The notes under the pieces were generated by a model, which was given only the letters and a program-made list of their open reading frames with translations, ran no database searches and was not told where the DNA came from. From positions 608,001-672,000 of the forward strand of contig CAVVJT010000007.1 of NCBI GenBank assembly GCA_963748625.1: a stretch of DNA of 64,000 nucleotides, in the 5' to 3' direction. Positions 27,929-58,292 of this stretch are shown here, piece by piece. Within the stretch, counting starts at the first letter, position 1; each line of letters opens with the position of its first letter. This DNA comes from an uncultured Chloroflexia bacterium (lineage in GTDB: Bacteria > Chloroflexota > Limnocylindria > Limnocylindrales > CSP1-4). Both the position numbers and the translations under genes were made by a program.

Positions 27929-28041
27929 TGCCCCACCTGTGGGGCATTTCGCCACCGTCCCAGCACGGTCTGCGTCGCAAACCCCGACTTTCGCACCCGG
28001 ACCACGCTCACGACCCCCGGATTTGGCCCCCACGTGGGGCG
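27929..28041 (+). repeat. REPIN-like dispersed element, subfamily 1
   Basis: TGCCCCACCTGTGGGGCA ... TGGCCCCCACGTGGGGCG, 95 bp apart. Confidence 0.85.
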
Positions 28042-28094
28042 GACTGCGCGCTGGGAGCCGGGGCGGACCGCGCACCGGGAGCCGAACCGGGAGC

Positions 28095-28941
28095 CTAACC
28101 GGGAGCCCAACCGGACCGCGACCTCTCCCCTGACCGGGCGCGCACCACCGAAGCTGCCGCCGCGTACCCCTCGTAGGCAGGCGCCCGACGACGACGGGTC
28201 AACGCGGTCCCGCGCAGCCACGATCGGTCGCGCGATGCCGGGTCGGCTGCTGCGAGACACCAGCCGGTCGGGGCAGGCGCGTCCAGCTCCGCCACCAGTC
28301 GCGCCAAAGACACCGACATCCCCCGGGAACGCGACCGCGAGCAGGTCCCGCGCGCCCGCGATCCTCGCCGCGACATCGGCCGAGTCGAGCACCACGCACA
28401 GCACCACCACCCGCCGCACCTTCCAGCCGAGCTCCTGCGCCGCCCGCCGCGCCTCCCGCACGTAGAACGAGAGGCTTCGCTGCAGCCCGCCGATATCGGG
28501 CAGGTCGGTCTTGGTCTCCTCGACGATCAGCGTCCCATCGGCCTCCCGGAAGGCAAGCAGGTCGATCCAGCCGCGTGGGCCGCCGTCGCCGATCAGCACC
28601 TCGGTCGCCACCTCCCAGCCGCCCCGGCGCAGGCGTCGCGCAACGTACCCGTTCAGCCAGGCGTGCACGGCGTCGAGCTGCCGCTCCCGATCCAGAAAGT
28701 GCCGCCCATCCAGCTCGAGCGTCGCGCGCAGCCCCAGCGCCGTGAGCAGCGACTCGACGACAAGGAGATCGAGCACCTGCGCCTGCCCGGATTCGAGGCG
28801 CCAGGTCGTCCCCTTCGACGTGCCGGCGCGCTCGGCGAGCTCCGCCTGGGACCAGCCGGCCAGGTGCCGGGCGTCGACGATGGCCTGGGCGAAGGCCGAC
28901 CTGGCGGTTGTCGTCGTGAGCGCGATGCGGGTGATGGGCAT
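28095..28941 (-). CDS. XRE-HTH fused to PD-(D/E)XK-like nuclease domain (X1; frameshift ~28305)
   Basis: WSQAELAERAGTS HTH; EV...GWIDLLAF...IVEETKT; C-terminus in alternate frame aligns with the 53366 paralog. Confidence 0.7.
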
Positions 28942-29062
28942 GGCACCTTGATACCCGGCCGGACTCACGTAGCACTCATTTCGCACGTATCCGCCGCTTA
29001 CGGCGCCGCCCACAGAACCGCCGACAGACGCCGACGCCGCGACCGGGTAGCATCGCCAGCGC

Positions 29063-30002
29063 ATGACGAACCCGAATTCCGACGCCGAACCGAACGCCGA
29101 CGCTGACGCCGACCCCGACGCCGCACACAACCCCGACCCCGACGCTGCCCACAACCCCGGGCCCTCCCTCGAGCGCCAGGCCACCCGTACCCGCATCGTC
29201 GCGGTCCGGGGCGCACGCGTCGAGATCAGGGACGACCGCCTCGCCGGCGAGGAGCCCATGGTCATCCGCGCGGCAGGACCGGGCCAGGCAGCCCATCGAC
29301 GTCGCGGTCACCATGCGCACACCCGGCCACGAGCAGGACCTGGCGGCGGGCTTCCTCTACACCGAGGGCCTGATCACCTCCGCCGACGACATCGATGCCA
29401 TCGACACCGGCGACCCCGCCACCCGCTCGAACCCCGACGACGAGGTCCTCGTCCACCTCACGAGCCCGCTCGACACGTCGCGCATCGCCGAGCGCAACTT
29501 CGTCGCCACCGCGTCGTGCGGCATCTGCGGCAAGGCCTCACTCGATGCGGTCGAAGTCCGCTGCGACCCCCTCCCCGACGGCTTCGCGGTCGCCAGCGAG
29601 ACCATCCTCGCCCTCCCCGACCGCCTCCGTGAGGCCCAGCGCGCATTCGACGCCACCGGCGGCATCCACGCGGCGGGCCTCTTCACGGCGGCCGGCGAGC
29701 TGATCGCGATGCGCGAGGATGTCGGCCGGCACAACGCGCTTGACAAGCTCATCGGCTCGCAGCTCCTGGCTGGGCGGACCCCCCTGCACGACACGATCCT
29801 CCTGGTCAGCGGCCGGGCCGGGTTCGAGCTCGTCCAGAAGGCCGCGGTCGCCGGGATCCCGGTGATGGCCGCGGTGTCGGCGCCGAGCGACCTGGCGGTC
29901 GAACTGGCGGAGCGCCTCGGCCTCACGCTGGTCGGGTTCCTGCGGGGCGACGGCTACAACATCTACGCCCGGGCGGACCGGATCAGGATCGAAGGCGCGT
30001 AG
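29063..30002 (+). CDS. fdhD: Formate dehydrogenase accessory sulfurtransferase (frameshift ~29290)
   Basis: EEP, MRTPG, GFLYTEG, SCGICG, TGGIHAA, EDVGRHNALDK, SAPS. Confidence 0.9.
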
Positions 30003-30091
30003 GCCCGGGGCCGAACCGGCCGCGCCGCGCCGGCCGCGCACCCGAACCGCGCCGGCCGCGCCGACCGCCGCGTCGCCGGTTTCCCGCATGT

Positions 30092-30204
30092 CGCCCCACC
30101 TGTGGGCCAAATCCGGACCGCGCACGCACGGACTGCGTGACAAACCCGGACTTTCGCGCCCGGACCACGCTCAGGACGGTCCGAAACGGCCCCCACGTGG
30201 GGCA
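30092..30204 (+). repeat. REPIN-like dispersed element, subfamily 1
   Basis: Boxes at 30092 and 30187 with conserved core. Confidence 0.85.
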
Positions 30205-30229
30205 GAGCGCGCCCTACGGAACCGGGACC

Positions 30230-32163
30230 TCAGTCGTCCGCGCCAGAACCCGAACCCGCCGCGCCAGAACCCGCCGCGCCAGAACCCGCCGCGCCAGAAC
30301 CAGAACCCGCCGCGCCAGAACCCGCCGCGCCAGAACCCGAACCCGCCGCGCCAGAACCACCAGCCGCCGCCGCAGCACCCGCCGCCGACGTGTGCGGGTT
30401 CAGCGGCCATGTCACACCCTCGGGCGCCTGCTCGCCGGACTCCGAGCCGGACCCCGACGTGGGCTGCCCGAACGCCGGCGACGTGACCGGCAGCACCTGC
30501 TCCTTGTGGCAGCGCGCGCAGTACACCGGCTGGTGGCAGTACGCGCAGGACTGGTTGCCCTGCTCGCGGATCACTGCAGCGTGGTTCGTCGCCATCTCGT
30601 CATGCCCGATCGAGATCGCGCCCGTCGAGTGGCAGTTCACGCAGTAGTCCTGCGCATGGCACTCCACGCACGTCGTCTGCGCCGGGTCGATCGAGGTCGC
30701 CACGTTCGCATGGTTGAACACCCAGAGATCGTCCTGGTGCGTGCTCGGCGGCTGGCCCAACGGCAGAGAGGCAACCGCCGGCCCGATCTGCGGGAACGTG
30801 TGGCACGTGTTGCAGGTGGACGGGATCGATTCCTTGGTCGCAACCCCATCCTCCACCCGGAAGTGCCCGCCGTCGTGGCAGCGGAAGCAGCCCGGGTAGT
30901 CCTGGTGCCCCTTCTGGTTCGGCGTAGGTCGCGGGGGTCACCTGCATCGCCGGCAGCGCCGTCTGCGGATACAGGTCCTTCAGCGCCACGATGGCGCCGC
31001 GGATCTGGGCCAGCTTCGTGGCGTAGATGTCCGGGTAGTTCACCTGGTACCACGCCTCCAGCGCATCGATCTCCGCGAACGCGGCCGCCTCATCGGGGTA
31101 CGCGGCCCACAGGATGCGCATCGACTCGCGCTTGATGAACGGCAGGGAGTCGTCGATCGTCCCCACCTGGAGCATGTAGTCCACGGCGTCGCGCGGGTTC
31201 GTGATGTCGTGGCCGACGCGGTTGTGGCAGTCGTAGCAGCTGACCTCGGTCAGCTCCCCGAGCGCCTTGATCGCCTCGATCTCGGGCTCGACGTTCTCAA
31301 CGTCGACGATGTGGGACTGCGCAGATGTACTCGACCTCCGAGCCATCGGCGCGCGTCGCCACCACGTAGTCGATCGAGGCGCCGTTGAGGCCGGTCCCCG
31401 CGTACTCCATGGGCAGCGCGACGTGGTTGTGCACGCTCCGGTCAACGTCGAACGGATCGCCGCCCGTGGGCCGGACCATCAGCCCGACGAACTCGCGGCT
31501 GTTCTCGGAGTCCTCGGAGAACGACTCCTTGGAGCGCACGCTCGCGAAGGAGCGCTGCTCCAGCGAGTGGCATTCCCGGCACGTGTCCTCCGTGGTGGGG
31601 AGCGCGGTGTGCTCGGGCGGGTGGATCGGCGTGGGGTACGTGCCCAGCACCGTGTCGATCAGCTGGCGCGTGCCGTTCATCTTGGCCTTGACCCAGCCGG
31701 CGATGCCTGGCTCCACGTGGCACTCGCCACAGGTGACGTTCCGGTGCGGGCCCGAGGAATAGGCCTGGAGCTCCGGGGCCATCGTGTGGCAGCGGCCGCA
31801 GAAGTCGGCGGACTCCGTCCAGGAGATGACGGTGACGCCGGCGTAGATCCCCACGAAGCCCACGGCACTGAGCACCAGCAGGAGGGCAAAGAGGCCACCG
31901 CGCGATTTCGGCAGCCGGATGCGGAGCCGCCGGCCGCGCAGGTAGAACGGGCTCCTGCGCTTGGCCGGGGCGCCCGAATTGGACTCCGAAGCCGAAGCCT
32001 CCGCCGATGCCGACTCCGACGTTGCCGATGCCGAAGCCTCCGCCGACTCCGACTCCGGTGCCGAACCTTCGAAACCCGACTCCGAAGCCGAAGCGATCTC
32101 GGGGGCGTCGACGTCGGCCGCATTGGCGGCGGTCTCCTCGACAGGACCCTCGGGATCGCTCAT
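30230..32163 (-). CDS. NapC/NirT-family membrane-anchored multiheme cytochrome c, 10 CxxCH (frameshifts ~31315, ~30920)
   Basis: TM then ES..FCGRCHTM, CGECH..PG..G...AK..G, CRECH, CYDCH, CFRCH, CNTCH, CVECH, CVNCH, CAYCH, CARCH; C-terminal SGAAG repeats. Confidence 0.82.
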
Positions 32164-32174
32164 GCCCTACTGCC

Positions 32175-32780
32175 TCAGTTCTGGATCGCGGCCAGTGCGC
32201 GATCCATGTCGGAGCGACTCATCGCGCCGATCCGGACCTCGCGGACCGTGCCGTCGGCACCGATGAAGAAGTGCGTGGGGATCCCCATCGTGCGGTAGCC
32301 CGCAGCGATGTCCGCGTTCTCGTCCACCAGGATCGGGAACGTCAGCCCCGCGCGGGACGCGTACCCGGCGATCGCGTCGGCCGGCTCGTTCATGAACACG
32401 CCGACCACATCCACCTTGTCCTTGTTCGCGAGATACGCGGCCTCCACGTCCGGCGCCTCATTGCGGCAGTCCGGGCACCACGAGGCGCCGAACGTCAGCC
32501 ACACCGGCCGTCCGGACGACAAGTAGGTCGAGAAATCAACAGGCTCACCGTCGTAGGTCACCCCGCGGAAGGACGGCGGAACCGTCCCGATCTTGGGGGC
32601 ATTCGCGGCGGCGGCGGAACCCAGGTCCACCTCCGTGACCCCATCGGAGGAGGATGCGCCGCCCCCGATGAGGAAGGCGGCCAGCCCGATGACGCCCACG
32701 GTGATCGCGATCACCACGATCGTCTGCAGCCGTCCGGCCGAACGGCCAGCCGGCCGCTCCGCCACATCCGCTGCACTCAT
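32175..32780 (-). CDS. resA: TlpA/ResA-like thiol-disulfide oxidoreductase
   Basis: N-terminal TM; FGASWCPDC, GIPTHFFI; within heme maturation operon. Confidence 0.8.
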   Translation of the reverse strand: MSAADVAERPAGRSAGRLQTIVVIAITVGVIGLAAFLIGGGASSSDGVTEVDLGSAAAANAPKIGTVPPSFRGVTYDGEPVDFSTYLSSGRPVWLTFGASWCPDCRNEAPDVEAAYLANKDKVDVVGVFMNEPADAIAGYASRAGLTFPILVDENADIAAGYRTMGIPTHFFIGADGTVREVRIGAMSRSDMDRALAAIQN

Positions 32781-32810
32781 AGACGAACTCCCTTCACACC
32801 AGACCCGGGC

Positions 32811-33881
32811 TCAGCCCAGGCCGGAGTAGCTGTGGAGCCCGCCGAAGAACAGGTTCCCGAAGTAGGTGAACAGCGTGGCCACGAAGCCCAGGACCAGCAG
32901 CCAGGCGGCGCGATCGCCGCGCCAGCCGCGCATCACGCGGGCGTGGAGGTAGGCGCCGTAGATGAACCAGGTCACCAGCGACGCGGTCTCCTTGGGATCC
33001 CAGCTCCAGTAGGTGCCCCACGCGGTGTCGGCCCAGACGGCGCCCAGGATGATCGTCAGGGTCAGGAACGGGAAGCCGATGACCACGGCGCGGTACCCGA
33101 TCTCGTCGAGCACCTGCGGCTTGGGCAGGCCCCAGCGGCCGCCATCGGAGTCGGAGAGCGAGGCGCCAACCCCGGACCAGCGGGCGATCCCGCCGATGAG
33201 ACCACCGACGACCGCGCCAAGCAGGAGGCCCGCGAGGAGCCCGGTGACCTGGCCCATGATCAGGCGCCGACGATCGCGCCCGGGACCGCGCCGATCAGCA
33301 TGCCCGCGGCCACCATCACCCACCGGCCCTGGAGCAGGAACAGCAGCGAGGCGGCGAACGCGATGGCGAAGGAGCCGTAGGCAACGATCGCGACCGCGAC
33401 GTGGACGGTGAGGAGCAGGTTGTTCTGGAGGGCGGGGACGAGCGGCTCGACGGTCGGCCGGAATGGTTGCCGCGTACAGCAGCATCGCCAGCGCGACCGG
33501 CAGGGCGATCAGGGCGAGGATGCGCTGGTGGTACTTGTGCTCGAACCAGGAGTACGTGACCAGGATGCCGAAGGCGAACGCCATCGAGAACTCGTACATG
33601 TTCGCGAACGGCCCGTGGCCGGTCACAACGGCCCGGAACACCATGCTGGCGCCCAGGAGGGCGGTGGCCAGCCACACGAAGATGGACGCGTACCGTCCTA
33701 GCTCGCCGGTGCGCGGGCCGGACATGAAGCCCACGGTGCCGCCGGCGCCTGAGCCAGGACCGCCCGCCGTCTGCATCCGCGCAGCGCGGACGCCGGAGAC
33801 GGCGTAGAAGATGTAGAGGACGAGCGCGAACGCCGTCATCAGGATTGACGCGATGAACGCGTACTCGGACATCTTTGCCAT
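32811..33881 (-). CDS. ccsA: Cytochrome c biogenesis protein CcsA/ResC (frameshifts ~33465, ~33262)
   Basis: [16 protein letters not shown]...[25 protein letters not shown]. Confidence 0.9.
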
Positions 33882-33894
33882 GGTGGGGACTCCC

Positions 33895-35337
33895 TCAGCC
33901 GTTCGCCGGCGTTCGCAGCGCCGTGCGGATGTCGTTGACGATGCTTTCGAACTCGGTGCCCTGCGCCACATCCTTCTGGGTGAGGGTGGCCAGGGCCAGG
34001 ACGGCGCCGCCGTTCGGACGGCTGGTGATGCGGCCCCACACGCGCTTGTGCGGGAACATGAAGCGGATGGCAAAGCCTCCGAAGAGGAGGAACGAGCCCA
34101 GCCACACGAGGGTGACACCCGGGTCGCGCGCGACACTGAGCCGGGTGTACTGGGTCTCACGGTCGAATGTCACGTCGAAGCCCGCAAGACTGGCGGCCTT
34201 GCCCTGGTCGATGACCTCCTGGGCGATCGGCGCGTTGTCCTGCCCGTGCTGCCAGACCTGCACCTCCACCTGCCCCGGCTTGATGCGCGGGTCGCTGGAG
34301 CCGGTGGTGCCCAGGACCCAGAGCGTCTTGTCCGAGTCCGGCACGGACCAGATGGCGAGCTGGCGGTCGTCGGCAGACAAGGACCACTCGTAGGGCAGGC
34401 CCTCGGAGATGAGGACGGCTCCGTCCTCGCCCTTGATCGTCATCGCCGCCGCCGAGCCGAAGCCGGACTGGTAGAAGGTCGTGTCCTTGTAGCGCAGCGG
34501 GTCGTTGACCCGGATGACGTGCTCATCGATCTTCTGGCCGTCCTTGTACAGGACGACGGTGCTGGCGTAGTCGATCGGCTGGCCCGTGGTGGTGTCGTAC
34601 GAGTCCATGAAGTCCAGGACCTCGAGCGCGAGGCCCGCCTCCGCGCCCACGGCCCGGGTGCTGCCCTCGGCCACGGCGAAGCCGCTGTCGCGGTAGCCCC
34701 AGGTGCCGCCGATGATCGCGCCTGCCAGGATCAGGATGATCGAGACATGGGCGATGAGGCCGGCGAACGAGAGCCAGCGGTGCTTGTCCGCGTAGACGTG
34801 GACCGTCCCGTCGTCGGCGTCGAGCACCCGGTAGCCGCGCTTCTTGAGGACGCCCTGTGCGGCGGCGGTCGTCTCGCTCGCGGACTGGCGGGACACGATC
34901 GCCTCGTGCTGGGGCGCATGCTCGAAGAACGCTGCCCCCACGTCCACGCGCGGCTTGGTGGCGGTCCGCCACATGCCGGGCGTGCGATGGACGGAGCAGG
35001 CGATCAGGCTGATCGTCAGGAACGCGACCAGGCCGCGGAAGATCAGCGAGTTGAAGATGTTGAATGCGTCGACCGCCGCGAGCGGGTCCGTCCAGCCCCC
35101 GAATGTCGGGCGGATGCCGTCAAGCCAGTCCGCGCGCGAGGCCGGGTCGGCCCACACGGTGGACGGCGCCTGGATCACGAGCGAGCCGATCACGCCAAGC
35201 ACGGCGATCGCAAGCATCACGACCATGGCCACGCGCATCGAGCTCAGGAAGTGCCAGAGGCCTTCCAGCACGCCGTCAACGCGGTCCATGGCTGAGGGAG
35301 ACGCGGTTGCGGGCCGCGTTTCGACCTTCTGGGTCAT
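33895..35337 (-). CDS. resB: Cytochrome c biogenesis protein ResB/Ccs1
   Basis: LSSMR.A, GSLVIQ, SLIACS, AHVS, IRVNDPL, FYQS, RDPG. Confidence 0.88.
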
Positions 35338-35348
35338 CGCCAGCCTCC

Positions 35349-36130
35349 TCAGATCCCGAACGGCGTGCCGAAGGTCGACAGCCGCCCGAGGGTGTTGGTG
35401 AACATCAGGACGCCGAGGATCACGAGCAGGGCGCCCGTGACCAGGTTGACGGCGTGGTTGTGGCGGCCGAACCAGCTCATCCGGCGGGCGACCCAGGAGG
35501 CGCCCATGGCGACCGCGATGAACGGGATGGCGAGGCCGGCGGCGTACGCGACCAGGAGCAGGGTGCCCTGGGCGAACGTCGCCGTGGCGGTGGCGATGCC
35601 GAGGATCCCGCCGAGGATGGGCCCGATGCACGGGCTCCAGCCGGCGGCGAACAGCAGGCCGAAGACGAAGGAACGGGGGTAGGCCGGAGTGCCGGGGCGG
35701 CTGGCGACGGCGCTCGATAGCGCCGCTGCCCGTGCCCGGGCCGCCGGCCATCACGAGGCCGCCGCCCATGGAGGGCATCACGCGGGTGTCGCGCCAGAGC
35801 GCGCGGACGTTGATGACGCCCGCGACCTGGAGGCCCATGAAGATCATCAGCGCGCCGATGATCATGTTCAGGTAGCGCCGGTCCACGAAGGCGCCGATCA
35901 CGCCCAGCAGGGCGTAGAAGGCGATGAACACGAGCGAGAAGCCCGCGCTGAACGCGAGGCCGTGGAAGAAGGCCGGGCGACGACCGGTGGTGCCCTCACC
36001 GGTCGCGCCCAGCATGTAGGAGACGTAGGCAGGAACGAGCGGCAGGCAGCAGGGGGATGCGAAGGACGCCAGCCCGCGCCAGGAAGGCGAGGCCGATGCC
36101 CAGCACGCTGCCGAGCTCGAGAGCGGTCAT
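35349..36130 (-). CDS. ccdA: Cytochrome c biogenesis protein CcdA (frameshifted)
   Basis: SFASPCCLPLVPAY, GFSLVF, GWSPCIGPILG, GLAIPF. Confidence 0.85.
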
Positions 36131-36133
36131 GGC

Positions 36134-37543: not shown

Positions 37544-37687
37544 GTTGATTGCCCTCAGCTATGTGCCGCGAGGGGCCGCGGCTTGACACCTGCTGAGATT
37601 GTCCGGGCACCAGGCGCTGCTCGCCCATGCGTAAGGCGGCACATTTCCGCGGGACCGTGACGGGCCAGAGGGTGGAGAAACGGACGC

Positions 37688-37716: not shown

Positions 37717-37743
37717 TCGAGAACCACGGTGCCGCGCGGTCGC

Positions 37744-48747: not shown

Positions 48748-48758
48748 TCCGGGGCCCG

Positions 48759-48870
48759 TGATGCGCCTGTGACTCACCCGCGGGGCTAGCGAGCGTGACC
48801 GCGTCGCGAAACCCGACCTTCGCGTCGTGATCGTGCAGGGCCGGGCTGGATCTGATGCGGCGGTGACTCA
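48759..48870 (+). repeat. REPIN-like dispersed element, subfamily 2
   Basis: TGATGC-N4-GTGACTCA boxes 94 bp apart; core CGAAACCCGACCTTCGC. Confidence 0.75.
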
Positions 48871-48984
48871 GGCGGGTGGCGGATCAGCCGAGAGGCGGCA
48901 GCAGCGGGGCGCGGGGACACTTCGAGCCGGTCGGCAGTTGGCGCTCGGTCGGTCCGCCGATACGGTCGGGCGCGGAGGTGGCGG

Positions 48985-49656: not shown

Positions 49657-49749
49657 CGGTAGGACGACCGGCGCGGTGCGGCAGTGCAGCGCGCCCCGCC
49701 TGTGGGGCGAATCCGGACCGCGGCCGCACGGCCTGCGCGCCAAACCCCG

Positions 49750-50999
49750 GGTGAATTCAGCCGGTCGATGCAACATCACCTCCGGAGGTCGTGTGGCGTA
49801 CTGGAGGTGACGGATGCGGCGACGGAGATCGGCCAGGGGCAAGCTCCGTGACGGGGACATCGCGGAGATCTGGCGGCTGTTCCATGACGGCCTCGGGCCA
49901 AAGGCGATCGCGAGGACCGTCGGCGCCTCGCACCAGGCGGTCGGCCGGGTGATCGCGGCACGCGGCGGCGTGATGCCCGTCGCCCACGCGGTCCTGCCGT
50001 GGAGGCGGTCGGGCCACCGCCTGCGGCTCGCGGACCGGGAGGAGATCAGCCGGGGCCTTGCCGCAGGCGAGTCCTTCCGGCAGATCGCCGGCCGCCTCGG
50101 TCGGGCGGCATCGACGGTCGCCCGGGAGGTCGGCCGCAACGGGGGCCGCGACGGGTACCGGGCCCACGAGGCCCACGAGGCCACCCGGGAGCGCGAGTGC
50201 CGCCCGAAGCCCACGCGCCTCGCCCGCAGCCCGCAGCTGCAGGCCGAGGTCGAGCGGCTGCTCCTCCTGCGCTGGTCGCCCGTCCAGATCGCGAGCCACC
50301 TGCGGCTGGCGCATCCTGCGGACGAGGAGATGCACGTGAGCCACGAGACGATCTACCGCGCGCTCTACATCCAGGGCCGGGGCGAGCTGCGCCGGGAGCT
50401 CGCCGCCTGCCTGCGCACGGGCCGGGCGAGGCGGCGGGCGATGGCCACGCCCGAGGACCGCGGGCGCATGGCGGGCATGGTCCTGATCAGCGAGCGTCCG
50501 GCCGAGATCGAGGACCGGGCGGTCCCCGGACACTGGGAGGGCGACCTGCTCATCGGCCGGGCCCAGGGCTCCGCCGTCGCCACCCTGGTCGAGCGGACGA
50601 CCCGGTACACCATGGTCGCCGCCCTGCCCGGCGGCCGCTCGGCCCCCGAGGTCCGCGACGCCCTGGTCGGGCTGGTCGCCCGGCTCCCCGACCACCTCCG
50701 GCGCTCGCTCACGTGGGACCGCGGGCACGAGATGGCCGAGCACCTGCGGTTCACGGTCGAGACCGGTGTTGCTGTCTACTTCTGCGACCCCTCGAGTCCC
50801 TGGCAGCGCGGCACCAACGAGAACACCAACGGGCTCCTCCGCCAGTACCTGCCCCGCACCATGGACCTGCGCGAGGTCGGCCAGGCGCAGCTCGACGCGA
50901 TCGCCGCCGAGCTCAACGGCAGGCCTCGACAGACGCTCGGCTGGAGGTCACCATCCGAGGTGTTCGCGGAGGCCGTTGCATCGACCGGCTGAATCCGCC
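49750..50999 (+). mobile_element. IS30-family insertion sequence, 1250 bp
   Basis: 25-bp TIRs GGTGAATTCAGCCGGTCGATGCAAC / GGCGGATTCAGCCGGTCGATGCAAC; 2-bp TSD CG. Confidence 0.93.
49814..50992 (+). CDS. IS30 family DDE transposase
   Basis: VSHETIY, GHWEGD, LTWDRG.EM, SPWQRGTNENTNGLLRQY, LN.RPR. Confidence 0.95.
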   Translation: MRRRRSARGKLRDGDIAEIWRLFHDGLGPKAIARTVGASHQAVGRVIAARGGVMPVAHAVLPWRRSGHRLRLADREEISRGLAAGESFRQIAGRLGRAASTVAREVGRNGGRDGYRAHEAHEATRERECRPKPTRLARSPQLQAEVERLLLLRWSPVQIASHLRLAHPADEEMHVSHETIYRALYIQGRGELRRELAACLRTGRARRRAMATPEDRGRMAGMVLISERPAEIEDRAVPGHWEGDLLIGRAQGSAVATLVERTTRYTMVAALPGGRSAPEVRDALVGLVARLPDHLRRSLTWDRGHEMAEHLRFTVETGVAVYFCDPSSPWQRGTNENTNGLLRQYLPRTMDLREVGQAQLDAIAAELNGRPRQTLGWRSPSEVFAEAVASTG

Positions 51000-51120
51000 C
51001 GACATTGGCGCCCGGACCACGCTCACGACCCGCCGAAATGCCCCACAGGTGGGGCAGCGTGCAGGTAATCGGGGGCCGCGAGGTGGGCCGGAGTGCGGTG
51101 GCGAGACGGCGCGGATGTCG

Positions 51121-51540
51121 TCAGATCGAGCCGGGCGCGGCGACCCAGCGCACCGGCTGGCCCGTCACCGAGGCGATGACGTCGTAGTCGTGGTCGTAGT
51201 GGACGATCATCACCCCATGGCGGGCTGCGACTGCTGCGATGAGGAGATCGGGGATCTTGACCTGGCGGTGGTGCAGCGGCCCTCGGGCAGCCAGCTCACG
51301 GAAGACGCGGCGCGCCTCGTCCCAGTCCGCCGGCTCGGTCCGCAGCCACGGGCAGGCACGCAGGCCCTCCTCCACGGCCTGGAAGTCTGCCCCGTCGCGG
51401 GCGCTCCAGAGCAGCTCCATCGCGACCATGTCGCAGACGGCGATCAGGCCGTCCTCCAGCGCCGGTCCGAACCATGCCAGGCCCGGCTTGCCCTTCCGGG
51501 CCCAGGCCGACGTGTCCGCCAGCTCGAGGCGTTCGTCCAT
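51121..51540 (-). CDS. vapC: VapC PIN-domain toxin
   Basis: ADTSAW, ELLWSAR, PDLLIAA.A, HYDHDY. Confidence 0.88.
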   Translation of the reverse strand: MDERLELADTSAWARKGKPGLAWFGPALEDGLIAVCDMVAMELLWSARDGADFQAVEEGLRACPWLRTEPADWDEARRVFRELAARGPLHHRQVKIPDLLIAAVAARHGVMIVHYDHDYDVIASVTGQPVRWVAAPGSI

Positions 51541-51545
51541 GGCCG

Positions 51546-51758
51546 TCAGCGCGGAAGGTCGCGCTGTGCCCGAAGGGTTGGCAGCACATCCTCGAGCTCC
51601 GAGAAGTCACGACGTGCGAGGCCGGCTCGCCGGCGGCGCGCGACGACGTCACGGAGGGCGGCGTGCACCGTTTCGGTGGTCCGCGTGGTGCCGAGCGCCT
51701 CGGCGGCGTCACGCAGCAGGTCGCGATCGAGGTCGAGCGTGGTGTGGGTCCTGGCCAT
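51546..51758 (-). CDS. vapB: VapB antitoxin
   Basis: TTLDLDRDLL..A...LGT....ETVH.AL; upstream of vapC. Confidence 0.85.
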   Translation of the reverse strand: MARTHTTLDLDRDLLRDAAEALGTTRTTETVHAALRDVVARRRRAGLARRDFSELEDVLPTLRAQRDLPR

Positions 51759-51874
51759 CGGAGGTGCCTCCGCCCGTGCGTTCTCGTGATGCGTGAACTC
51801 TATCACCGCGTCCACGCATCCATCAGGCGATTGATCACGCATTCGGCCCGATGCTCGGTCGGCCACGCAGCGCG

Positions 51875-51987
51875 CGCCCCACCTGTGGGGCGAATTGGGA
51901 TGTCGAACGCAGGGTCTGCGTGCCAAACCCCGGGATGCGCACCCGGCCCACGCTCACAGCGGGCCGAAACGCCCCACAGGTGGGGCA
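51875..51987 (+). repeat. REPIN-like dispersed element, subfamily 1
   Basis: CGCCCCACCTGTGGGGCG ... CGCCCCACAGGTGGGGCA, 95 bp apart and mutually inverted. Confidence 0.85.
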
Positions 51988-52022
51988 GGTGCGCGATCGG
52001 GGACTAGAGCGCAGGCGCCCGA

Positions 52023-52550
52023 TCAGGCCGGCAGTGACTCCTTCGGCGTCTCGAAGTTGGACGGGACGTCCACCTCGATGCCAGTGCCGGGGATCTCGCG
52101 GACCGGGAACCGGACCAGCGGCTTGGGCGGCGCGCCGGCGAGGACGGTGCCGTCAAGCGCGAACTCGCCCTCGTGGCACGCGCACTCGAACTTGGAGATG
52201 GCGGCCGTCCAGGAGTAGCGGCACAGGCCGTGCGTGCAGCGCGGGTCGTAGGCGACGAGGTCGCCCTCGGCCGTGCGCAGGAGCCAGGTGGAGCCGGGGA
52301 TCCGCTCGCCGTTGGACGCGACGACGCTGAACGGGACTTCCTGCGGGGTGCCGGGGACGAGACTCGCGGGGTCGATGTCGAGGGCGATGGTCTGCGGGGG
52401 TCCCGAACAGGCAGCAAGGACCGCGCCGAGGCCGCCCGAGGCCACGACGGCACCTGCGCCCATGAGGATCAGCATCGATCGTCGCGGGACGGGCGTGGAA
52501 CGCGGATCGAACGCCGGACCCTCCTCGGGCCGGCGGCCTGTGTTGCCCAT
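52023..52550 (-). CDS. Rieske 2Fe-2S protein with Tat-like/lipoprotein signal
   Basis: RR..L signal, LAAC; CTHGLC and CACH.G.F..DG..GAPP.PL motifs. Confidence 0.88.
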   Translation of the reverse strand: MGNTGRRPEEGPAFDPRSTPVPRRSMLILMGAGAVVASGGLGAVLAACSGPPQTIALDIDPASLVPGTPQEVPFSVVASNGERIPGSTWLLRTAEGDLVAYDPRCTHGLCRYSWTAAISKFECACHEGEFALDGTVLAGAPPKPLVRFPVREIPGTGIEVDVPSNFETPKESLPA

Positions 52551-52562
52551 GTTCGGGAGAGC

Positions 52563-52952
52563 CTACCCCGAGACCGCGCTCGGCTGCAGGCCGCGATCCT
52601 GGTCGTTGCGCGCAACACCGCTGACAGCCTGGCGGATGGCGGCCAGGAAGTCGTCCGGCTTCGACGCCAGGGACTCCCGCTTGAGGGTCCACGCGCTGGT
52701 GGTGGTGATGTCGACGTCGAGCACGAGGGCCGATCCGGATCGCCGCACGATGTCCGCGGCGTCGATCCTGCCGCCCTCCTCCACCACGATCACGGCGGGC
52801 GCGCTGGCGAGCGCGGCATCGACGGCAGCCGTCTCGCAGACGTCCACGGCCTCGACGATGATGCCGGGTTCGGCGGCCAGCATCCGGCCCAAGCCCTCCC
52901 CCATCAGGGGATGGCTGTACAGGACGAGGACCCTGACGGGCTCCGGTGACAC
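52563..52952 (-). CDS. Degenerate stand-alone receiver-like protein
   Basis: VRVLV...HPL..EGL..ML...P.I; lacks the canonical acidic pocket. Confidence 0.55.
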   Translation of the reverse strand: MSPEPVRVLVLYSHPLMGEGLGRMLAAEPGIIVEAVDVCETAAVDAALASAPAVIVVEEGGRIDAADIVRRSGSALVLDVDITTTSAWTLKRESLASKPDDFLAAIRQAVSGVARNDQDRGLQPSAVSG

Positions 52953-53160
52953 GTTCTCCCACCCACTCCACAGCCCGCGACGGGGCCGTGCTCCGATGCT
53001 AGGGGAGGGTCCGATGTCGTCCAATCCGTCGCAGGGCACAGCCGGACCCGCGAATCCCTGTATCCGAAGGGCTACCGGCCCAAGGAATCCGTGCCGAACG
53101 GCGCATCCGGCCGACGGCACCCACCGCGTCGGGACCTCAATCCACCCCCGTTGCCCCGAC

Positions 53161-53272
53161 TGAGTCACGTATGCATCAATTCAGGTCCGGCCCCGCACGA
53201 CCAGGCCGCGAAGGTCGGGTTTCGAGGCCCGGCCACGCACGTACCGGGGCGGATTGAGTCACAGCCGCATCA
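53161..53272 (-). repeat. REPIN-like dispersed element, subfamily 2
   Basis: TGAGTCAC-N4-GCATCA boxes 94 bp apart; reverse complement aligns with 48759-48870. Confidence 0.75.
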
Positions 53273-53365
53273 AGTTCCCGAAGGTGCTGTCGATGCCACC
53301 AATGTGCGGCATAAGCGCGGCATACGCGCGGTCTAAGTACGACGTGAGCGGACTCCGCTACAACC

Positions 53366-54184
53366 ATGGCCATGGACAGCCGAACCGTGCGACTGGGCGA
53401 GGACGCGACGGTCGGCAGTGTCGCGACGATCATCAAGAACGCCCGCGAACTGACGGGCTGGTCGCAGCGCGAGCTCGCGGGGCGCGCCGGAACATCGCAA
53501 TCAGCGATCTGCCGGCTGGAGTCCGGGAGTGCCTCTGCGGTAGAGATGCTCGTGCTCGGCAAGGTGCTCGACGCGCTCGGACTGGACGCGCAGCTCGTCG
53601 TCGAAGGCCGCCACCTCTTCGACAGGGTGCGCCAGAAGGATGGCGTACACGCGAAGGTCACGGGGTTCGTCGGCCGACGCCTCACGCGGTGGGATTGGCT
53701 GACCGCCGGTGAAGCGCTGATCGGCATCGATCGGCCGCGCGGCTGGATCGACCTTCTGGCCTTCCGGTGGGCCGATCGCGCACTCCTGGTCGAGGAGACC
53801 AAGACAGAGATCCCGGACATGGGCCAACTCCAGCGCAGCCTCGCCTTCTATGAGCGGGAGGCGATGGCGGTGGCACGGGGGTTCGGGTGGGAACCGCGCA
53901 GCGTGAATGTGCTTCTTGTCACCTTGGACAGCGCGGCCATCGCCCGGCGCCTCGCAGACAACCGGGACCTCGTCAGACTCGCCTTCCCCGCGCCGGTCTC
54001 GGATGTTCTCCGCTGGCTCGAGCACCCGACTGCGGCGCGGCCGCGAGAGTGGGCCATCGGCACGTGCGACCCAGCGTCACGGAGGGTGACGTGGCTCCGG
54101 CCAACGACGCTCGGCTCGCGTCGCACGCCTCCGGCCTATGCGAACTACGCGGATGCGGCGGCCCGCCTGCTCCTGCCGGGGTGA
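53366..54184 (+). CDS. XRE-HTH fused to PD-(D/E)XK-like nuclease domain (X2)
   Basis: WSQRELAGRAGTSQS.I.RLESG; GWIDLLAF...LVEETKT. Confidence 0.75.
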   Translation: MAMDSRTVRLGEDATVGSVATIIKNARELTGWSQRELAGRAGTSQSAICRLESGSASAVEMLVLGKVLDALGLDAQLVVEGRHLFDRVRQKDGVHAKVTGFVGRRLTRWDWLTAGEALIGIDRPRGWIDLLAFRWADRALLVEETKTEIPDMGQLQRSLAFYEREAMAVARGFGWEPRSVNVLLVTLDSAAIARRLADNRDLVRLAFPAPVSDVLRWLEHPTAARPREWAIGTCDPASRRVTWLRPTTLGSRRTPPAYANYADAAARLLLPG

Positions 54185-54247
54185 ACTAACCGCGTGCGCA
54201 GGGCCCGAGCGGTGGTCGCGGGGCGGGTCCCGCTCGCGTCGGCTGGC

Positions 54248-54359
54248 TGAGTCGCCTGCGACTCACCGCGTGAGATCCACGCAGGGGTGCGCCCCCGAAG
54301 TCGAGGTTCGCGTGTTGGGCTGTGCGGGGACGAGGGCCGAATGAGTCCGGCGCGACTCA
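54248..54359 (-). repeat. REPIN-like element, subfamily 2 variant
   Basis: TGAGTC-N6-GACTCA palindromes 94 bp apart; minus-strand core CGAACCTCGACTTCG. Confidence 0.7.
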
Positions 54360-54449
54360 GGCGCCGGGGCGAGCGTGCCCAGACCGACTCAGGCGCCACG
54401 GCGCGGCGCGAGGAATCCGCGCCCGAGGCGCAGGCCGCGAGACCCCGCG

Positions 54450-55145
54450 TCAGCCCCGGGGGTTGTCCTGGCTCGTCATCCCCTGGCGCACCGCGTAGGC
54501 CGCGGCCTGCACCCGGTTCGTGAGGTGGAGCTTCTCGAGGGCGTTGTGGACGTGGTTCTTGACCGTGCCCTCGGTGATCGTCAGCTCGTTGGCGATCTCC
54601 TTGTTGGACATCCCCGCAGCGACGAGCTGGAGGATCTCCGACTCACGCCGGGTGAGGACGGTGTCCTCGGGCGCCAGCGTCGAGCCAGATCCGCGCGTGG
54701 GGATCCCGCCGGTGCGCAGGGCCTCCAGCAGCTTGGTCGCGACCGCGGGTGCGATGGGCGACTCACCGCGCATGACACCGCGCAGGTCCTCGAACAGCTG
54801 CTCCGGCCGGACGTTCTTGAGGAGATACCCGTTGGCGCCGGCCTTGATCGCGTTGAACAGGTCGTCGTCGTCCTCGGACACCGTGAGCATCACGATGGGG
54901 GTCGTGAAGCCGGCCGACCGGATCGCGATCACCCCGTCGACGCCGTCGGCATCGGGCATGTTCACGTCCATCACGACGAGGTCCGGCTTGAACTGGCGGA
55001 CCTTCTCCAGGGCGTCACGGCCGTTCTCGCCCTCGCCCACGACCGTCATGTCGAACTGGCCGCCGATCAGGGTCGCCAGTGCCCTCCGGAAGAGCGGCTG
55101 GTCGTCAACGAGCAGCACCCTGATTTTCGGCGGAAGGTGTTCCAA
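54450..55145 (-). CDS. NarL/LuxR-family response regulator
   Basis: VLLVDD, VMDVNMP, MLTVS, GYLLK, LTRRE.EIL...GMSNKEIA...TVKNH; TTG start inferred from GAGGA RBS. Confidence 0.92.
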   Translation of the reverse strand: MEHLPPKIRVLLVDDQPLFRRALATLIGGQFDMTVVGEGENGRDALEKVRQFKPDLVVMDVNMPDADGVDGVIAIRSAGFTTPIVMLTVSEDDDDLFNAIKAGANGYLLKNVRPEQLFEDLRGVMRGESPIAPAVATKLLEALRTGGIPTRGSGSTLAPEDTVLTRRESEILQLVAAGMSNKEIANELTITEGTVKNHVHNALEKLHLTNRVQAAAYAVRQGMTSQDNPRG

Positions 55146-56913
55146 CAGTGTCCTCGGCGTCGAGTCGGACGACGATCGTCGTCCCGGCATTCGGAGCAGT
55201 ATGCACATCGATCGAGCCGCCGATCTGCTGGACCCGCTCCCGCATGGAGGCGAGCCCGAAGCCCCCCTCCATCGAACCGGCGACGGTCGAAGGATCGAAG
55301 CCTACCCCATCATCCTCGATCGAGAGAGTGGTGCCACTGGGCGCGCACTCGATCCGGACGCTGACCTTGGAGGCCTGGGCGTACTTGCGTGTGTTGGTCA
55401 GGGCCTCCTGTACGACGCGCAGGAGCTGGACCTCGGAGCGGGGGCTGATCGAGCGGCGGGCGTCGCCCTGGCAGGAGACGGTGGCGGCGATACCCGTCTG
55501 GCGGCTGTACTTGCGCAGGTACTCGCGAAGGGATCCCTCGAGGCCCGCGTCCTCGCGGACGGTCTCGCGGAGGCCAAGGATCGCCTCGCGGACGTCCTGG
55601 TAGGCCTCGTCGGCGGTGTCGGCCAGGTCGCTGAGCTCATCGGCGAGGTCGCTGCTGGCCTCGTCCTTGGCGCGCAGCTCGAGCGCGCGCAGCTGGAGGT
55701 GGATGACGCCGAGGACCTGCGCGAGGCTGTCGTGCAGCTCGCGGGCGATGCGATCGCGCTCGGCGTGGATGGTCCACTGCTCCTCGGACTCGTGGAGGTG
55801 GGCGGTGCGGACCGCGATCGCGGCCATGTCCGCGAGGGCACCGAGGAGGCTGCGCTCGCTCTCGGTGAACGGGCGGCCGTGGCGGACGACGCACAGCTCA
55901 CCGAGCACGCCGTCGGGGCCGCGGAGCGGACGGGCTGCCCACTGGGTGTCACCGTCGCGCAACACGGTCGGGCAGTGCGCGTTGTGCGTGCGGCCCGCTG
56001 CTGCATGCTCATCGGCCACGTGGCAGACGGGGCCGTCGTCGGCCATCGCGAGCAGGTCACGGATCGCAGGCGTGCGGGCGGCGACGTCTCGCCGGTCGGA
56101 CAGGCAGGCCACGGCGCGCTCGGCGCCCAGCAGGTCGCGGGCGTGCTGGGTGATGGTGTCGAGGACCTCGCGCAGCTCGGCGCGGCCGGTCAGCTGGAGG
56201 GCGACGGCGTACAGGGCTCCGCGCTCGAGCTCGCGGCGGTGCAGGTCGGCGACCGTCAGGCCCAGCTGGGCAGCGCCAGCGATCTCGCCCGCGATGTCGG
56301 CGAGGGCCGCGTCCGAGATGTCGGGCTCGACGGGCGGGTGGAACGCGAGGCGCAAGTGGCCGATGCGCGCGCCGCCACGGACGAGCGGCAGGTCCAGAAT
56401 GCCGGTGTCGATGCCGGCCCGGCGGGTGTAGCGCGGATCGAGGAAGGCGGCGTCGGGGGGCTCGGTGAGGAGCGGGGAGAGCCAGGCGAGACCGGGCGAC
56501 AGGGCGGCCGGCCGACGGATCTCGATGGGCGGTCCATCCGGCTGCGCGATGGTGACGATCCCCGCGAGGGCGCCGGTCTGGGTCATCACGCGATCGAGGC
56601 TCTGCTCCAGCAGGTCCGGCAGGGAGAGGCCGCCGCGGACCGCCGAGCTCACGGCATGGGTGGCCGTGAGGTCCTTGTTCTGGCTCACCAGGTGGCGCTG
56701 GGCGCGGTCGAGGTAGACCGAGACGATCATCGCGAAGGCAACGATCGCGCCGCCCATGACCATCGCGGCGGCGACGTGCGACTCATCGGACGTCAGCTGC
56801 GGGTCGAGGACGAGGAAGCGGACGAGCTCGAAGCCCCAGACGAAGACGATGGGCAGGACGATCGTCACCCACTTGAGGCGGTTGAGGTCGCGGAGGCCTC
56901 GGGGGTCGCTCAT
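55105..56913 (-). CDS. NarX/UhpB-type (HisKA_3) sensor kinase with GAF domains
   Basis: 2 TM; ERDRIARELHDSLAQ, QEALTN, EDDGVGF, GFGL..MRER. Confidence 0.92.
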   Translation of the reverse strand: MSDPRGLRDLNRLKWVTIVLPIVFVWGFELVRFLVLDPQLTSDESHVAAAMVMGGAIVAFAMIVSVYLDRAQRHLVSQNKDLTATHAVSSAVRGGLSLPDLLEQSLDRVMTQTGALAGIVTIAQPDGPPIEIRRPAALSPGLAWLSPLLTEPPDAAFLDPRYTRRAGIDTGILDLPLVRGGARIGHLRLAFHPPVEPDISDAALADIAGEIAGAAQLGLTVADLHRRELERGALYAVALQLTGRAELREVLDTITQHARDLLGAERAVACLSDRRDVAARTPAIRDLLAMADDGPVCHVADEHAAAGRTHNAHCPTVLRDGDTQWAARPLRGPDGVLGELCVVRHGRPFTESERSLLGALADMAAIAVRTAHLHESEEQWTIHAERDRIARELHDSLAQVLGVIHLQLRALELRAKDEASSDLADELSDLADTADEAYQDVREAILGLRETVREDAGLEGSLREYLRKYSRQTGIAATVSCQGDARRSISPRSEVQLLRVVQEALTNTRKYAQASKVSVRIECAPSGTTLSIEDDGVGFDPSTVAGSMEGGFGLASMRERVQQIGGSIDVHTAPNAGTTIVVRLDAEDTVGTPSAENQGAAR

Positions 56914-57132
56914 GTGTGGGGGTCGCTCATGCGGGGATGACGCGGGCTGCGCGGGGGACGCGAGCTGCGCTGGGGACGCCGGGGACGCGGATTGCCCGCG
57001 GGACGCTGGGGACGTTCATTGCCTCGACTGTGCCGTTCGATACAGCTGTCGGGTCAGTGCCGACTGGCCCGTACGATACAGGGCCGTGCGGACCGGAGGG
57101 CCGGGACGCGTGCGGCCGGGGGGCGTCGCGCC

Positions 57133-57274
57133 AGCCTGCGCACCGATCGCGCCCACTGTGCAGCGCCGTCGCTGGATGCGCGATCGATGCGCAGCTCAGG
57201 CGCCGGCTCGGGTCGAACTCGCCACGGGCTGCGCGCTCATCAGACACCCAGCGACGTGAGTGCCTGGTGTGCGC
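57133..57274 (+). repeat. ~140-bp element, subfamily 3 (left copy)
   Basis: First 54 bp identical to 58151-58204, ungapped similarity beyond; internal ~30-bp inverted arms ~96 bp apart. Confidence 0.85.
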
Positions 57275-57375
57275 GACTGATGCGCACGGCTCGCGGCCCG
57301 GGGTTGTGGGTCGCAGCTCGGGGGTTGTGCACAGGCGAATTGGTCCGGGATAAGCGGGACGTGCCACAGTCCGCC

Positions 57376-58032
57376 ATGGGAACTCACCAACGAGCCGTGG
57401 ACCTCGCCGCCGAGGATGCACGGATGATCCTCGAACGGCTGCGCAAAGAGGTCCGCGACACGCGGATTGCCCTCGGGCTCAGCCAGGTCGAGCTCGCCGC
57501 CGTGTCCGGGGTATCGCGCTGGAAGGTGGGGCGGTTCGAGGCTGGCGACGCCGGCGCCATTCCGCTCGCGGACCTGTGCGCGTTGCTGCGTGGGGTCGGA
57601 CTGGCGCCGTATGTGAACACCGCCCCCACCGGGGTGCGGGTCCGCGACGGCGCCTCGCTGCGGATCCTCGATCGCTTCGCGGAGGTCGTGGCATCACCCC
57701 TGCGACTCCCGCGTGAGGTGCTCCTCCCTGCACCGGGCGAGCTGCGCGCCTGGGACGCCGCTGTCATGGCGGAGCGGCAGCGTGCCTTCGTGGAGGTCAT
57801 CTCGAAGTTGGGCGACGTGCAGGCGCTGGCCCGATACCTGGCGATCAAGCTGCGCGACGATGGCCGCAGCCAGACGCTCATCCTGGTTGTCGGGCGGACC
57901 GCGCACAACCGGGAGGTGCTTGCAGCCCACCGCGAGGCGCTTCGCCTGGCGTTCCCGCTCGACGGGGCGGCCATCGCACGAGCGCTGCGGTCGGGACGTC
58001 TGCCAGCGGCCAGCGGGATCATCGTCGTGTGA
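57376..58032 (+). CDS. XRE-HTH fused to restriction-endonuclease-like domain (X3)
   Basis: LSQVELAAVSGVSR..V.RFE.G; REV...RAWDA...FVEV. Confidence 0.65.
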   Translation: MGTHQRAVDLAAEDARMILERLRKEVRDTRIALGLSQVELAAVSGVSRWKVGRFEAGDAGAIPLADLCALLRGVGLAPYVNTAPTGVRVRDGASLRILDRFAEVVASPLRLPREVLLPAPGELRAWDAAVMAERQRAFVEVISKLGDVQALARYLAIKLRDDGRSQTLILVVGRTAHNREVLAAHREALRLAFPLDGAAIARALRSGRLPAASGIIVV

Positions 58033-58150
58033 GCTCGGCAGTCCGCCGGCCTGGCGCCGGCTTTCCGCTGGGTGTGCGCCGGGCCCCCGCCGGGAGTCCC
58101 CCAGCCCCCGGCCCCCGGCCCCCGGCCCCCGGCCCCCGGCCCCCGCGCGG

Positions 58151-58292
58151 AGCCTGCGCACCGATCGCGCCCACTGTGCAGCGCCGTCGCTGGATGCGCG
58201 ATCGGCACGCAGCCCAGGCGCTGCGAGACGGCCGCGACCGTCCAGGCTGCGCATGGCTCAGACAACCAGCGACGTGACCGCACGGTGTGCCT
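58151..58292 (+). repeat. ~140-bp element, subfamily 3 (right copy), preceded by a (CCCCGGC)n tract
   Basis: Direct repeat of 57133-57274 at offset 1018. Confidence 0.85.

Follow-up and report, generated by a model that had tools for sequence, protein, structure and literature searches.

We analyzed three genes and their adjoining repeat elements in a 64,000-nt stretch of DNA (hereafter the window, G000:C7:608001-672000) from an uncultured Chloroflexia bacterium of the order Limnocylindrales, whose genome comprises 4.63 Mb in 10 contigs with 71% G+C. The genes X1, X2, and X3 encode proteins with an N-terminal XRE-type helix-turn-helix (HTH). An earlier note had described them as XRE-HTH/PD-(D/E)XK genes, each accompanied by its own repeat subfamily, and the positions of the genes and adjoining repeats agreed with that description. 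A tblastn search over the genome identified nine XRE-HTH relatives, comprising five X-type genes, X1, X2, Xa (C7:467k), Xb (C10:1357k), and Xc (C10:450k), and four Y-type genes, X3, Ya (C7:934k), Yb (C7:480k), and Yc (C10:414k). No gene is present twice in the genome, and the nearest paralogues are 52-61% identical in protein.

X2 (53366-54184, plus strand) is an intact X-type gene of 272 aa, with HTH_3/HTH_31 at residues 23-78 and conserved residues E116, D129, E144, and K146. X3 (57376-58032, plus strand) is a Y-type XRE-HTH gene of 218 aa and a full-length homologue of the X-type. X1 (28095-28941, minus strand, 847 nt), an X-type gene encoding an XRE HTH and a putative PD-(D/E)XK domain, lies 54 nt from a family-1 element, as noted earlier, but a frameshift splits its reading into two frames. 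The N-terminal 188 residues are encoded by 28378-28941 and the C-terminal part by an open reading frame (ORF) at 28095-28376, which aligns with the tail of X2. Of the 38 residues that the family alignment shows as invariant, X1 retains 33 despite the frameshift. L84 is replaced by F, and R195, F207, W217, and L268 have no aligned residue; the first three of these four fall in the unaligned stretch of X1 around the shift, and L268 lies near the C-terminus.

The element adjoining X1 occupies 27912-28050, with boxes GCCCCACCTGTGGGGC (27930-27945) and GCCCCCACGTGGGGC (28026-28040). Solo copies of family 1 lie at 12890-13028, 17772-17910, 22316-22454, 24249-24387, 30075-30213, and 51858-51996. A further copy is split by an IS30-family insertion into a left half (49689-49751) and a right half (50998-51065). 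In an initial scan of the window, the family had appeared as 7-8 copies of a repeat of about 136 nt. X2 has an element on each side, as the earlier note had reported. The upstream element (53161-53272, box to box) carries boxes TGAGTCAC..GCATCA and belongs to a family of three copies, the second of which lies at 48759-48876 in inverted orientation. The downstream element (54248-54359) carries TGAGTC-N6-GACTCA boxes and is unique in the genome. Both have a 94-nt box spacing. They do not belong to one subfamily as had been stated; iterated nhmmer separates them, and they have only architecture and half-site in common. X3 is indeed bracketed by two direct repeats, at 57133-57290 (a family of 30 loci) and 58151-58305, which are 79.7% identical over 143 nt (57133-57272 versus 58151-58290).

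The X-type elements share one architecture, namely a palindromic box of 16-18 bp at each end, with the two boxes 94-96 nt apart. The boxes are GCCCCAC..GTGGGGC in the X1 family, CCCCAA..ATGGGG in the Xc family, TGACTC-N6-GAGTCA in the Xb family, and of the TGAGTC type at X2. A central motif near AAGTCGGGGTTTG is common to the X-type families. Conservation is highest in the boxes (0.78-0.88), intermediate in the centre (0.69-0.80), and lowest in the rest of the element (0.65-0.68). It ends just outside the boxes; some 10 nt beyond them, family 1 shows a weak inverted end resembling CTGC. Of the strict paired-box matches, 32 had the boxes 94-96 nt apart and 8 had them 85 nt apart. The Y-type elements are longer and contain several palindromes each. 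When one family-1 element was folded as single-stranded DNA, its energy of -27 kcal/mol, compared with a shuffled mean of -23.9 (z = -1.13), gave no stable REPIN-type hairpin beyond shuffles; each box is itself palindromic.

Element placement was determined with a crude ORF caller, whose calls extend over only 54% of the genome. Called ORFs contain 1-10% of element bases, compared with 54% of the genome. Among elements with an ORF called on each side, 76 of 211 lie between convergent genes, compared with 446 of 2,258 gene pairs genome-wide. This enrichment does not fit a promoter regulon. A genome census of exact palindromes was dropped because the GC-rich background swamped the count. A loose paired-box detector fired in 594 of 1,500 random segments; hence, a strict detector was used, which recognizes two similar 16-18-bp palindromes 94-96 or 85 nt apart.

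Repeat families were collected by iterated nhmmer seeded from the gene-flanking elements. The X-type families comprise 51 loci of about 111 nt (X1), 32 loci of about 109 nt (Xc), and 29 loci of about 112 nt (Xb), and the Y-type families comprise 30 loci of about 147 nt (X3), 47 loci of about 144 nt (Ya), and 23 loci of about 154 nt (Yc). The X2-upstream family has 3 loci (about 114 nt), and the X2-downstream element has a single locus (about 119 nt). Each of the six families of 23-51 loci adjoins exactly one X/Y gene, and the overlap between families is one locus only, which bears out the proposed pairing of one gene with one repeat family. For Xc, Xb, and X3, the upstream and downstream seeds each converged on one common set. 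BLAST of the flanks placed Xb between inverted 119-nt repeats and Yc between direct 65-nt repeats, and found repeats on both sides of Xc and on one side of Ya; many of these have further copies elsewhere.

The homologues are also enriched beside elements, as had been expected. A family member lies within 300 nt of seven of the nine X/Y genes, and three of the nine have the same family on both sides, whereas only 7,464 of 200,000 random 800-nt intervals have any family member within 300 nt and 85 of 200,000 have the same family on both sides. Seeding of the families from gene flanks makes this comparison partly circular, and independence therefore rests on de novo clusters and on other genomes. 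De novo clusters from a whole-genome self-BLAST gave the same gene adjacency, with the flanks falling in different clusters. The single-linkage clustering mixed coding paralogues (ABC ATPases, response regulators, and low-complexity P/T-rich repeats) with true elements, and self-BLAST families 2, 4, 5, 8, 11, and 12 were set aside as coding after their sequences had been read.

Several smaller features accompany the genes and elements. A conserved ATAAGCGG-like motif lies about 20-35 nt 5' of the start codon in most X/Y genes (X1, X2, Xb, Xc, X3, Ya, and Xa; for example, window 57350-57360) and may be part of their promoters. Short tandem repeats with 7- to 27-nt units separate genes or elements from their neighbours at window 58096-58150, 30223-30396, and 24200-24265, for example (CCCCCGG)n following X3 and a 15/21-nt array that follows the 30075 element; the downstream sides of Xb and Xc and the upstream side of Ya have such repeats as well. 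Outside the window, two small modules of the PIN/VapC type, with a possible antitoxin ORF, each lie between two elements of one family, one between family-1 elements in direct orientation (G000:C7:11988-13011) and the other between Xc-family elements in inverted orientation (G000:C10:370621-371655). The elements may carry or trap other small selfish modules.

X-type and Y-type relatives were found in 326 and 115 database clusters, respectively, at E <= 1e-3, and their named sources are Limnocylindrales, Chloroflexia, or Chloroflexota. Many of the database copies stand alone on contigs some 1.0-1.4 kb in length, which is what assembly breaks at repeats on either side would produce. X-type matches were present in 23 of 24 sampled genomes of the window's genus, with up to 10 per genome, and in 0 of 16 small genomes of the sister family. 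Enough flank was available for 59 X-type loci and 28 Y loci from other metagenome-assembled genomes (MAGs). Left and right bracketing repeats (E <= 1e-4) were found at 25 of the 59 X loci and 11 of the 28 Y loci, compared with 11 of 400 random control intervals; the layout of a gene with flanking repeats thus recurs in other Limnocylindrales MAGs. The strict paired-box signature was detected at 29 of 59 X loci and in 42 of 3,000 random 400-nt segments, and 43 of 59 X loci had either bracketing repeats or this signature. Distant Xa-like relatives (31-35% identity) had no bracketing repeat except for one 16-nt match at L019. The flanking repeats are scattered through other genomes as well, in widely differing numbers, with more than 20 matches in the single-contig genome G006, 9 in G008, 6 in G078, and 3 in G016. 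Two X-type loci with paired boxes, L082 and L097, occur in MAGs labelled Verrucomicrobiia, which may reflect mis-binning or transfer; the other full-length loci carry Chloroflexota-type labels.

The recognition helix was compared with the half-site of the boxes, with the helix defined by alignment to X2 residues 43-52 and the half-sites taken from flank sequences and classed by eye at 44 of 68 loci, one of which had no readable helix. A Q..W helix accompanied AC[TGC]C boxes at 17 of 17 loci, H..W accompanied GGCAC boxes at 3 of 3, and [D/K/N]..W accompanied CCCCA boxes at 3 of 3. Helices with Q..[C/S/A/Q] were associated with AGTC (9), ATCC (5), and other classes (6), in no case with ACTC. Among those of the S class, QA was matched with ATCC at 5 of 5 loci, and QS with AGTC or ATGC. 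On a maximum-likelihood tree of the C-terminal domain alone (40 rows), the box class changed 16 times, compared with a shuffled mean of 20.4, and 0 of 200 shuffles gave as few changes. GGCAC (with H) requires 2 changes and ATCC (with QA..S) requires 4 on this tree, and the sisters L054 (ACTC, Q) and L051 (GGCAC, H) are joined with 100/99 support. These changes point to independent switches of helix and box, in line with a co-phylogeny of protein and box, for which the earlier note had proposed a test. The pattern argues that each protein reads its own boxes. Because helix and box covary, binding is well supported, and the X/Y proteins very probably bind DNA.

In the Pfam database, HTH_31 (cut-off 27) matched X1, X2, and X3 with 37.5, 33.1, and 30.3 bits, and HTH_3 (cut-off 23) gave 34.4 and 27.3 bits. 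The XRE-type HTH is present in 60 of 60 members of the X-type alignment. It is followed by a conserved C-terminal domain of about 190 residues that bears E..D..ExK, and E116, D129, E144, K146, and D151 are invariant among the 60 X-type sequences. A set of 40 C-terminal domains from other genomes shows no variation at D49 and K66 and at least 90% conservation at E64. Homology between the X- and Y-type proteins extends from end to end (hhalign probability 98.5%, E 3.3e-15). Curated Pfam models gave no match to the C-terminal parts of X1, X2, and X3. Below the thresholds, an MmcB-like match to Xa was found (E 7.6e-4, 19.7 bits, cut-off 22), together with PDDEXK_10, NERD, PDDEXK_1, and UPF0102 (E 0.04-0.15). 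A C-terminal profile searched against 1.84 billion representative proteins gave 1,405 matches at E <= 1e-3; the best 150 of these were all family members, with no bridge to a named nuclease family among them. Given the conserved E..D..ExK motif and the below-threshold Pfam matches, the C-terminal domain of the X-type probably adopts a PD-(D/E)XK nuclease fold.

The presence of genes and elements at orthologous loci differs between species. The closest sampled relative, G061, shows 78-90% nucleotide identity in genes and is collinear over window 12-32 kb. At the site of X1 and its element, G061 has a spacer of 213 nt, compared with 1,121 nt here. The site of the 24249 element corresponds to a 91-nt spacer in G061, too short for a family-1 element, compared with 319 nt here. 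Two other element sites have spacers of similar length in G061, with unrelated sequence and other palindromes; at the 22316 element, the orthologous intergenic region is unrelated sequence with a TGAGTC-type palindrome. No RNA sequencing run was listed as containing the window's sequence, and four DNA runs contained only 5-7% of the sampled words. Among the contigs of these DNA runs, which came from relatives, two join 24184 to 24519/24520. These joins span the element-bearing intergenic region, and we place little weight on them.

The X3 site measures 113 nt in G008, and the empty-site alignment covers the left side only, to about window 57100-57130. The relatives examined have neither X1 nor X3 at the syntenic sites. 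Y-type genes in the opposite orientation were observed at the X3 site in G057 (C71:9140-9793, 50% identical to X3) and G054 (C39:8336-8986, 45%). The best X2 matches, 59-61% identical in protein, occur in G008, G014, and G016, and the two genes that flank them are those that flank X2. The X2 orthologues in G008 and G016 share boxes TGATCG..GCATCA, which resemble the X2 upstream boxes. The X2 site without the gene was found in G006, G024, G013, G001, G060, and G045, with spacers of 38-289 nt. Synteny of X2 in three other species fits vertical descent, which is RAYT-like and not IS-like (IS, insertion sequence). The spread of autonomous gene-plus-repeat copies, which the earlier note had included in its proposal, is not supported, given the single-copy genes, the 52-61% identity of the paralogues, and this synteny. 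The X3 family has a median identity to consensus of 0.95, which indicates a recent burst.

We propose that each gene and its repeats form a repeat-plus-cognate-protein system, REPIN-RAYT-like in organisation and built from unrelated parts, and we hold this reading to be somewhat better than evenly probable. In such a system, the N-terminal XRE HTH, presumably as a dimer, would read the 16-18-bp palindromic boxes of its own element of about 110-150 nt. A spacing of 94-96 nt corresponds to about nine helical turns and thus places both boxes on one face of the DNA, so that bound dimers could bridge the ends. The central AAGTCGGGGTTTG-like motif is a candidate action site for the conserved C-terminal domain. 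The protein would create or maintain the copies through cuts at or within the element, and host repair or re-insertion would complete the process. The gene would stay single-copy, and at least the X2 lineage would descend vertically, with helix and boxes diverging together. Whether the X/Y protein mobilises the elements in this way appears evenly balanced. The earlier suggestion of an HTH-nuclease system analogous to REPINs thus stands with respect to pairing, recurrence, covariation, and the absence of RAYTs, and lacks support with respect to autonomous spread of the gene.

A number of observations weigh against this proposal. No target-site duplication was seen in the three X-type families, judged by eye only (about 82 of 112 copies). 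Profile searches of the PDB with the whole protein and with the C-terminal domain yielded HTH matches only and no nuclease. The Y-type proteins keep E114, W126, D127, and D147, but the ExK lysine varies, with K in X3 and Yb and R in Ya and Yc. Hence, only the X-type shows the PD-(D/E)XK motif, and a nuclease fold is less likely for the Y-type than for the X-type; the catalytic residues that had been expected to be conserved are invariant in the 60 X-type sequences and not in the Y-type. PD-(D/E)XK enzymes hydrolyse DNA, and no such enzyme is known to accomplish a whole transposition by itself. X1 is frameshifted although its repeat family is the largest. Xa and Yb, two of the nine genes, have no repeats at their flanks by flank BLAST or in the de novo clusters. 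Pairwise identity within the X-type families is 0.60-0.67, which implies that most X-type copies are old, and the gene-adjacent Y-type copies are among the most divergent of their families (ranks 30/30 and 26/30 for X3, 40/44 for Ya, and 19/21 for Yc). In G077, there are flanking copies only (2) and no further dispersal. The box classes were not assigned blind, and 24 of the 68 loci have no class. Every genome compared is a MAG, and the window's genome, at 98.3% completeness, has an estimated contamination of 7.74%. Lastly, an orphan family of 35 loci stands apart from the X/Y genes, none of which lies within 14 kb of a copy. Its members are about 180-240 nt long and carry four ATCC..GGAT-type boxes and the shared central motif (for example, G000:C7:555461-555699; one member starts near window 7395). 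The helix of Xa (SQAAVS) would suit the ATCC class of this family, which we regard as only a lead.

Palindromic operators close to the gene itself are common targets of XRE HTH proteins. The X/Y proteins might accordingly be ordinary auto-regulated XRE repressors or domesticated chromosome-organising proteins whose operators are the boxes, with a sensor or oligomerisation function for the C-terminal domain and with elements that spread otherwise and persist as decoy or architectural sites. The best PDB matches, HipB, HigA, SinR, and controller proteins, agree with this explanation, as do the proximal upstream box about 55-100 nt 5' of the start codon, beyond the ATAAGCGG-like motif, the lack of dispersal in G077, and the absence of an invariant ExK from the Y-type. 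It also predicts the covariation of helix and box. Nevertheless, it is unlikely in view of the element that lies downstream of the gene as well in many loci, the elements between convergent genes, where there are no promoters, and the invariant E..D..ExK of the X-type. Dispersal would still need an agent, and the search of the genome turned up neither a RAYT nor an IS that matches. The gene cassette could instead be a selfish mobile unit like a homing endonuclease gene, for which the repeats are landing sites and not products. Relatives lack whole element-plus-gene units, those of X1 and X3, at the syntenic sites, and the oppositely oriented Y-type genes at the X3 site in G057 and G054, the many database copies alone on short contigs, the up to 10 X2-protein matches per genome, and the broken or split state of some gene copies point the same way. 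However, the genome contains no near-identical gene duplicates, the paralogues being at most 61% identical; X2 orthologues are syntenic in three other species, and the flanking elements are full copies instead of halves of a split target. The origin of 20-50 solo elements would also be left unexplained, and we therefore consider a selfish cassette quite improbable.

The known agents of repeat dispersal were searched for in the genome. Y1_Tnp (PF01797), the RAYT domain, had 0 matches in the whole genome, whereas the same search was positive in 6 of 14 control genomes; the absence of RAYTs noted for the window thus extends to the genome. DDE_Tnp_1 had no match in the genome, and the X/Y proteins have no Y1_Tnp match. 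The genome also has few repeats that are both long and highly identical. A single-copy IS30-family insertion lies at window 49752-50997, and its gene (49814-50992, plus strand) encodes HTH_38 and rve and is the only rve match above the cut-off in the genome. This copy lies between the family-1 halves, exactly in the central motif, and has its own inverted ends (GATTCAGCCGGTCGATGCAAC-like), which are absent from solo elements. It interrupts an element and is therefore not the source of the family. Hence, the alternative of a RAYT or IS as the source of the repeats, which the earlier note had named as a possible refutation, found no support. The elements could still be ordinary miniature inverted-repeat transposable elements (MITEs) moved in trans by a conventional transposase, of the IS30 type or another IS, with HTH genes sharing the intergenic regions by chance. 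The IS30-family transposase within a family-1 element would suit this explanation, as would the local clustering of about 11 family-1 copies within roughly C7:601-660 kb. It is nonetheless very improbable, because the IS30 ends lie inside the split element, that rve match is the only one above the cut-off and neither DDE_Tnp_1 nor Y1_Tnp has a match, and at least six transposases would be required for the six or more families, whose ends differ. Nor can helix/box covariation result from chance co-location, or the bracketing of genes by the same family, which occurred in only 85 of 200,000 random intervals. Three further readings were dropped, namely those of integron attC-like and CRISPR-like repeats, which the repeats and neighbouring genes do not fit, and that of a toxin-antitoxin system, for which there is no partner gene.

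In a published study (PMC3116915) and in abstracts of REPIN-RAYT papers, the RAYT is described as a single-copy gene flanked by its own intergenic repeat family, with several pairs per genome and mostly vertical inheritance. The abstracts present REPIN-RAYT as the only known class of persistent, vertically inherited repeat populations with a single-copy enzyme. By these accounts, the system here resembles REPIN-RAYT in its intergenic repeat families, each tied to one distinctive single-copy flanked gene, and in having several pairs per genome. The mostly vertical inheritance of RAYTs may also have a counterpart here, with X2 syntenic in three other species and absent from its site in six further genomes, and with X1 and X3 missing from the sites of relatives. 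The two differ in that the protein here has an XRE HTH and a PD-(D/E)XK-like domain, whereas the RAYT is an HUH/Y1 enzyme. Double-stranded palindromes are apparently read by the HTH here, whereas REPINs are recognised as single-stranded hairpins, and the elements here measure about 110-150 nt and combine a central motif with two boxes set 95 nt apart at a fixed spacing.

Like IS-derived MITEs, the elements are short non-autonomous intergenic copies with symmetric ends that vary in presence or absence between relatives. Unlike them, they are accompanied by no multi-copy transposase gene, and the X/Y proteins lack a DDE or serine/tyrosine recombinase domain. Whole elements, and not half-elements, flank the gene, and no target-site duplication was seen by eye. 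The X/Y proteins would share with homing endonuclease genes and PD-(D/E)XK restriction-like nucleases site-specific cleavage, long sites, fast divergence of specificity, and patchy presence. Homing, however, copies a gene into one allelic site, whereas here tens of solo non-coding copies lie at unrelated loci and the gene is single-copy. With XRE repressors and antitoxins (HipB, HigA, SinR, and C proteins), the X/Y proteins have in common the N-terminal HTH family and palindromic operators as targets; they differ in the extra C-terminal domain of about 190 residues with E..D..ExK, in sites that lie inside dispersed repeats, and in the absence of an adjacent toxin gene. A search of the published literature, with subscription journals and supplementary files outside its scope, found no description of the system.

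Some features of the window and genome stand apart from the repeat system. A selenocysteine tRNA is encoded at window 5676-5769, minus strand (Rfam tRNA-Sec, 66.5 bits); it was the only Rfam match over the window at gathering thresholds, with no match at the repeat elements. Diverged direct repeats from the initial scan (D7-D20, window 24.5-25.4 kb and 38.4-43.8 kb) resemble paralogous coding segments of neighbouring genes. The whole of contig G000:C1 (28 kb) is a copy of G000:C10:134.9-159.1 kb with 86-89% identity, and this duplicate, together with the estimated contamination, suggests that a second related strain may be present in the bin.

The repeat-plus-cognate-protein system may, more tentatively, represent a new class of bacterial replicative repeat system. 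In this broader proposal, which we regard as possible though somewhat doubtful, HTH-PD-(D/E)XK repeat-associated nucleases would bridge the ends of their elements, cut, make copies, and co-diversify with them within Limnocylindrales genomes, as RAYTs and REPINs do in Proteobacteria, and would have originated independently of RAYTs. The helix code would be that Q..W reads GACTC, H..W reads GGCAC, QA..S reads ATCC, and N/K-G..W reads CCCCA. If this is true, the partnership of a single-copy enzyme with a repeat population evolved more than once, the second time with an unrelated enzyme that reads double-stranded DNA. The natural series of HTH variants tracking 6-nt half-sites would amount to a readable recognition code. 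The making and keeping of REP-like repeats would become directly testable with a small protein and a 110-nt substrate. The system would also explain the abundant repeats that break assemblies in a widespread soil and freshwater lineage of Chloroflexota.

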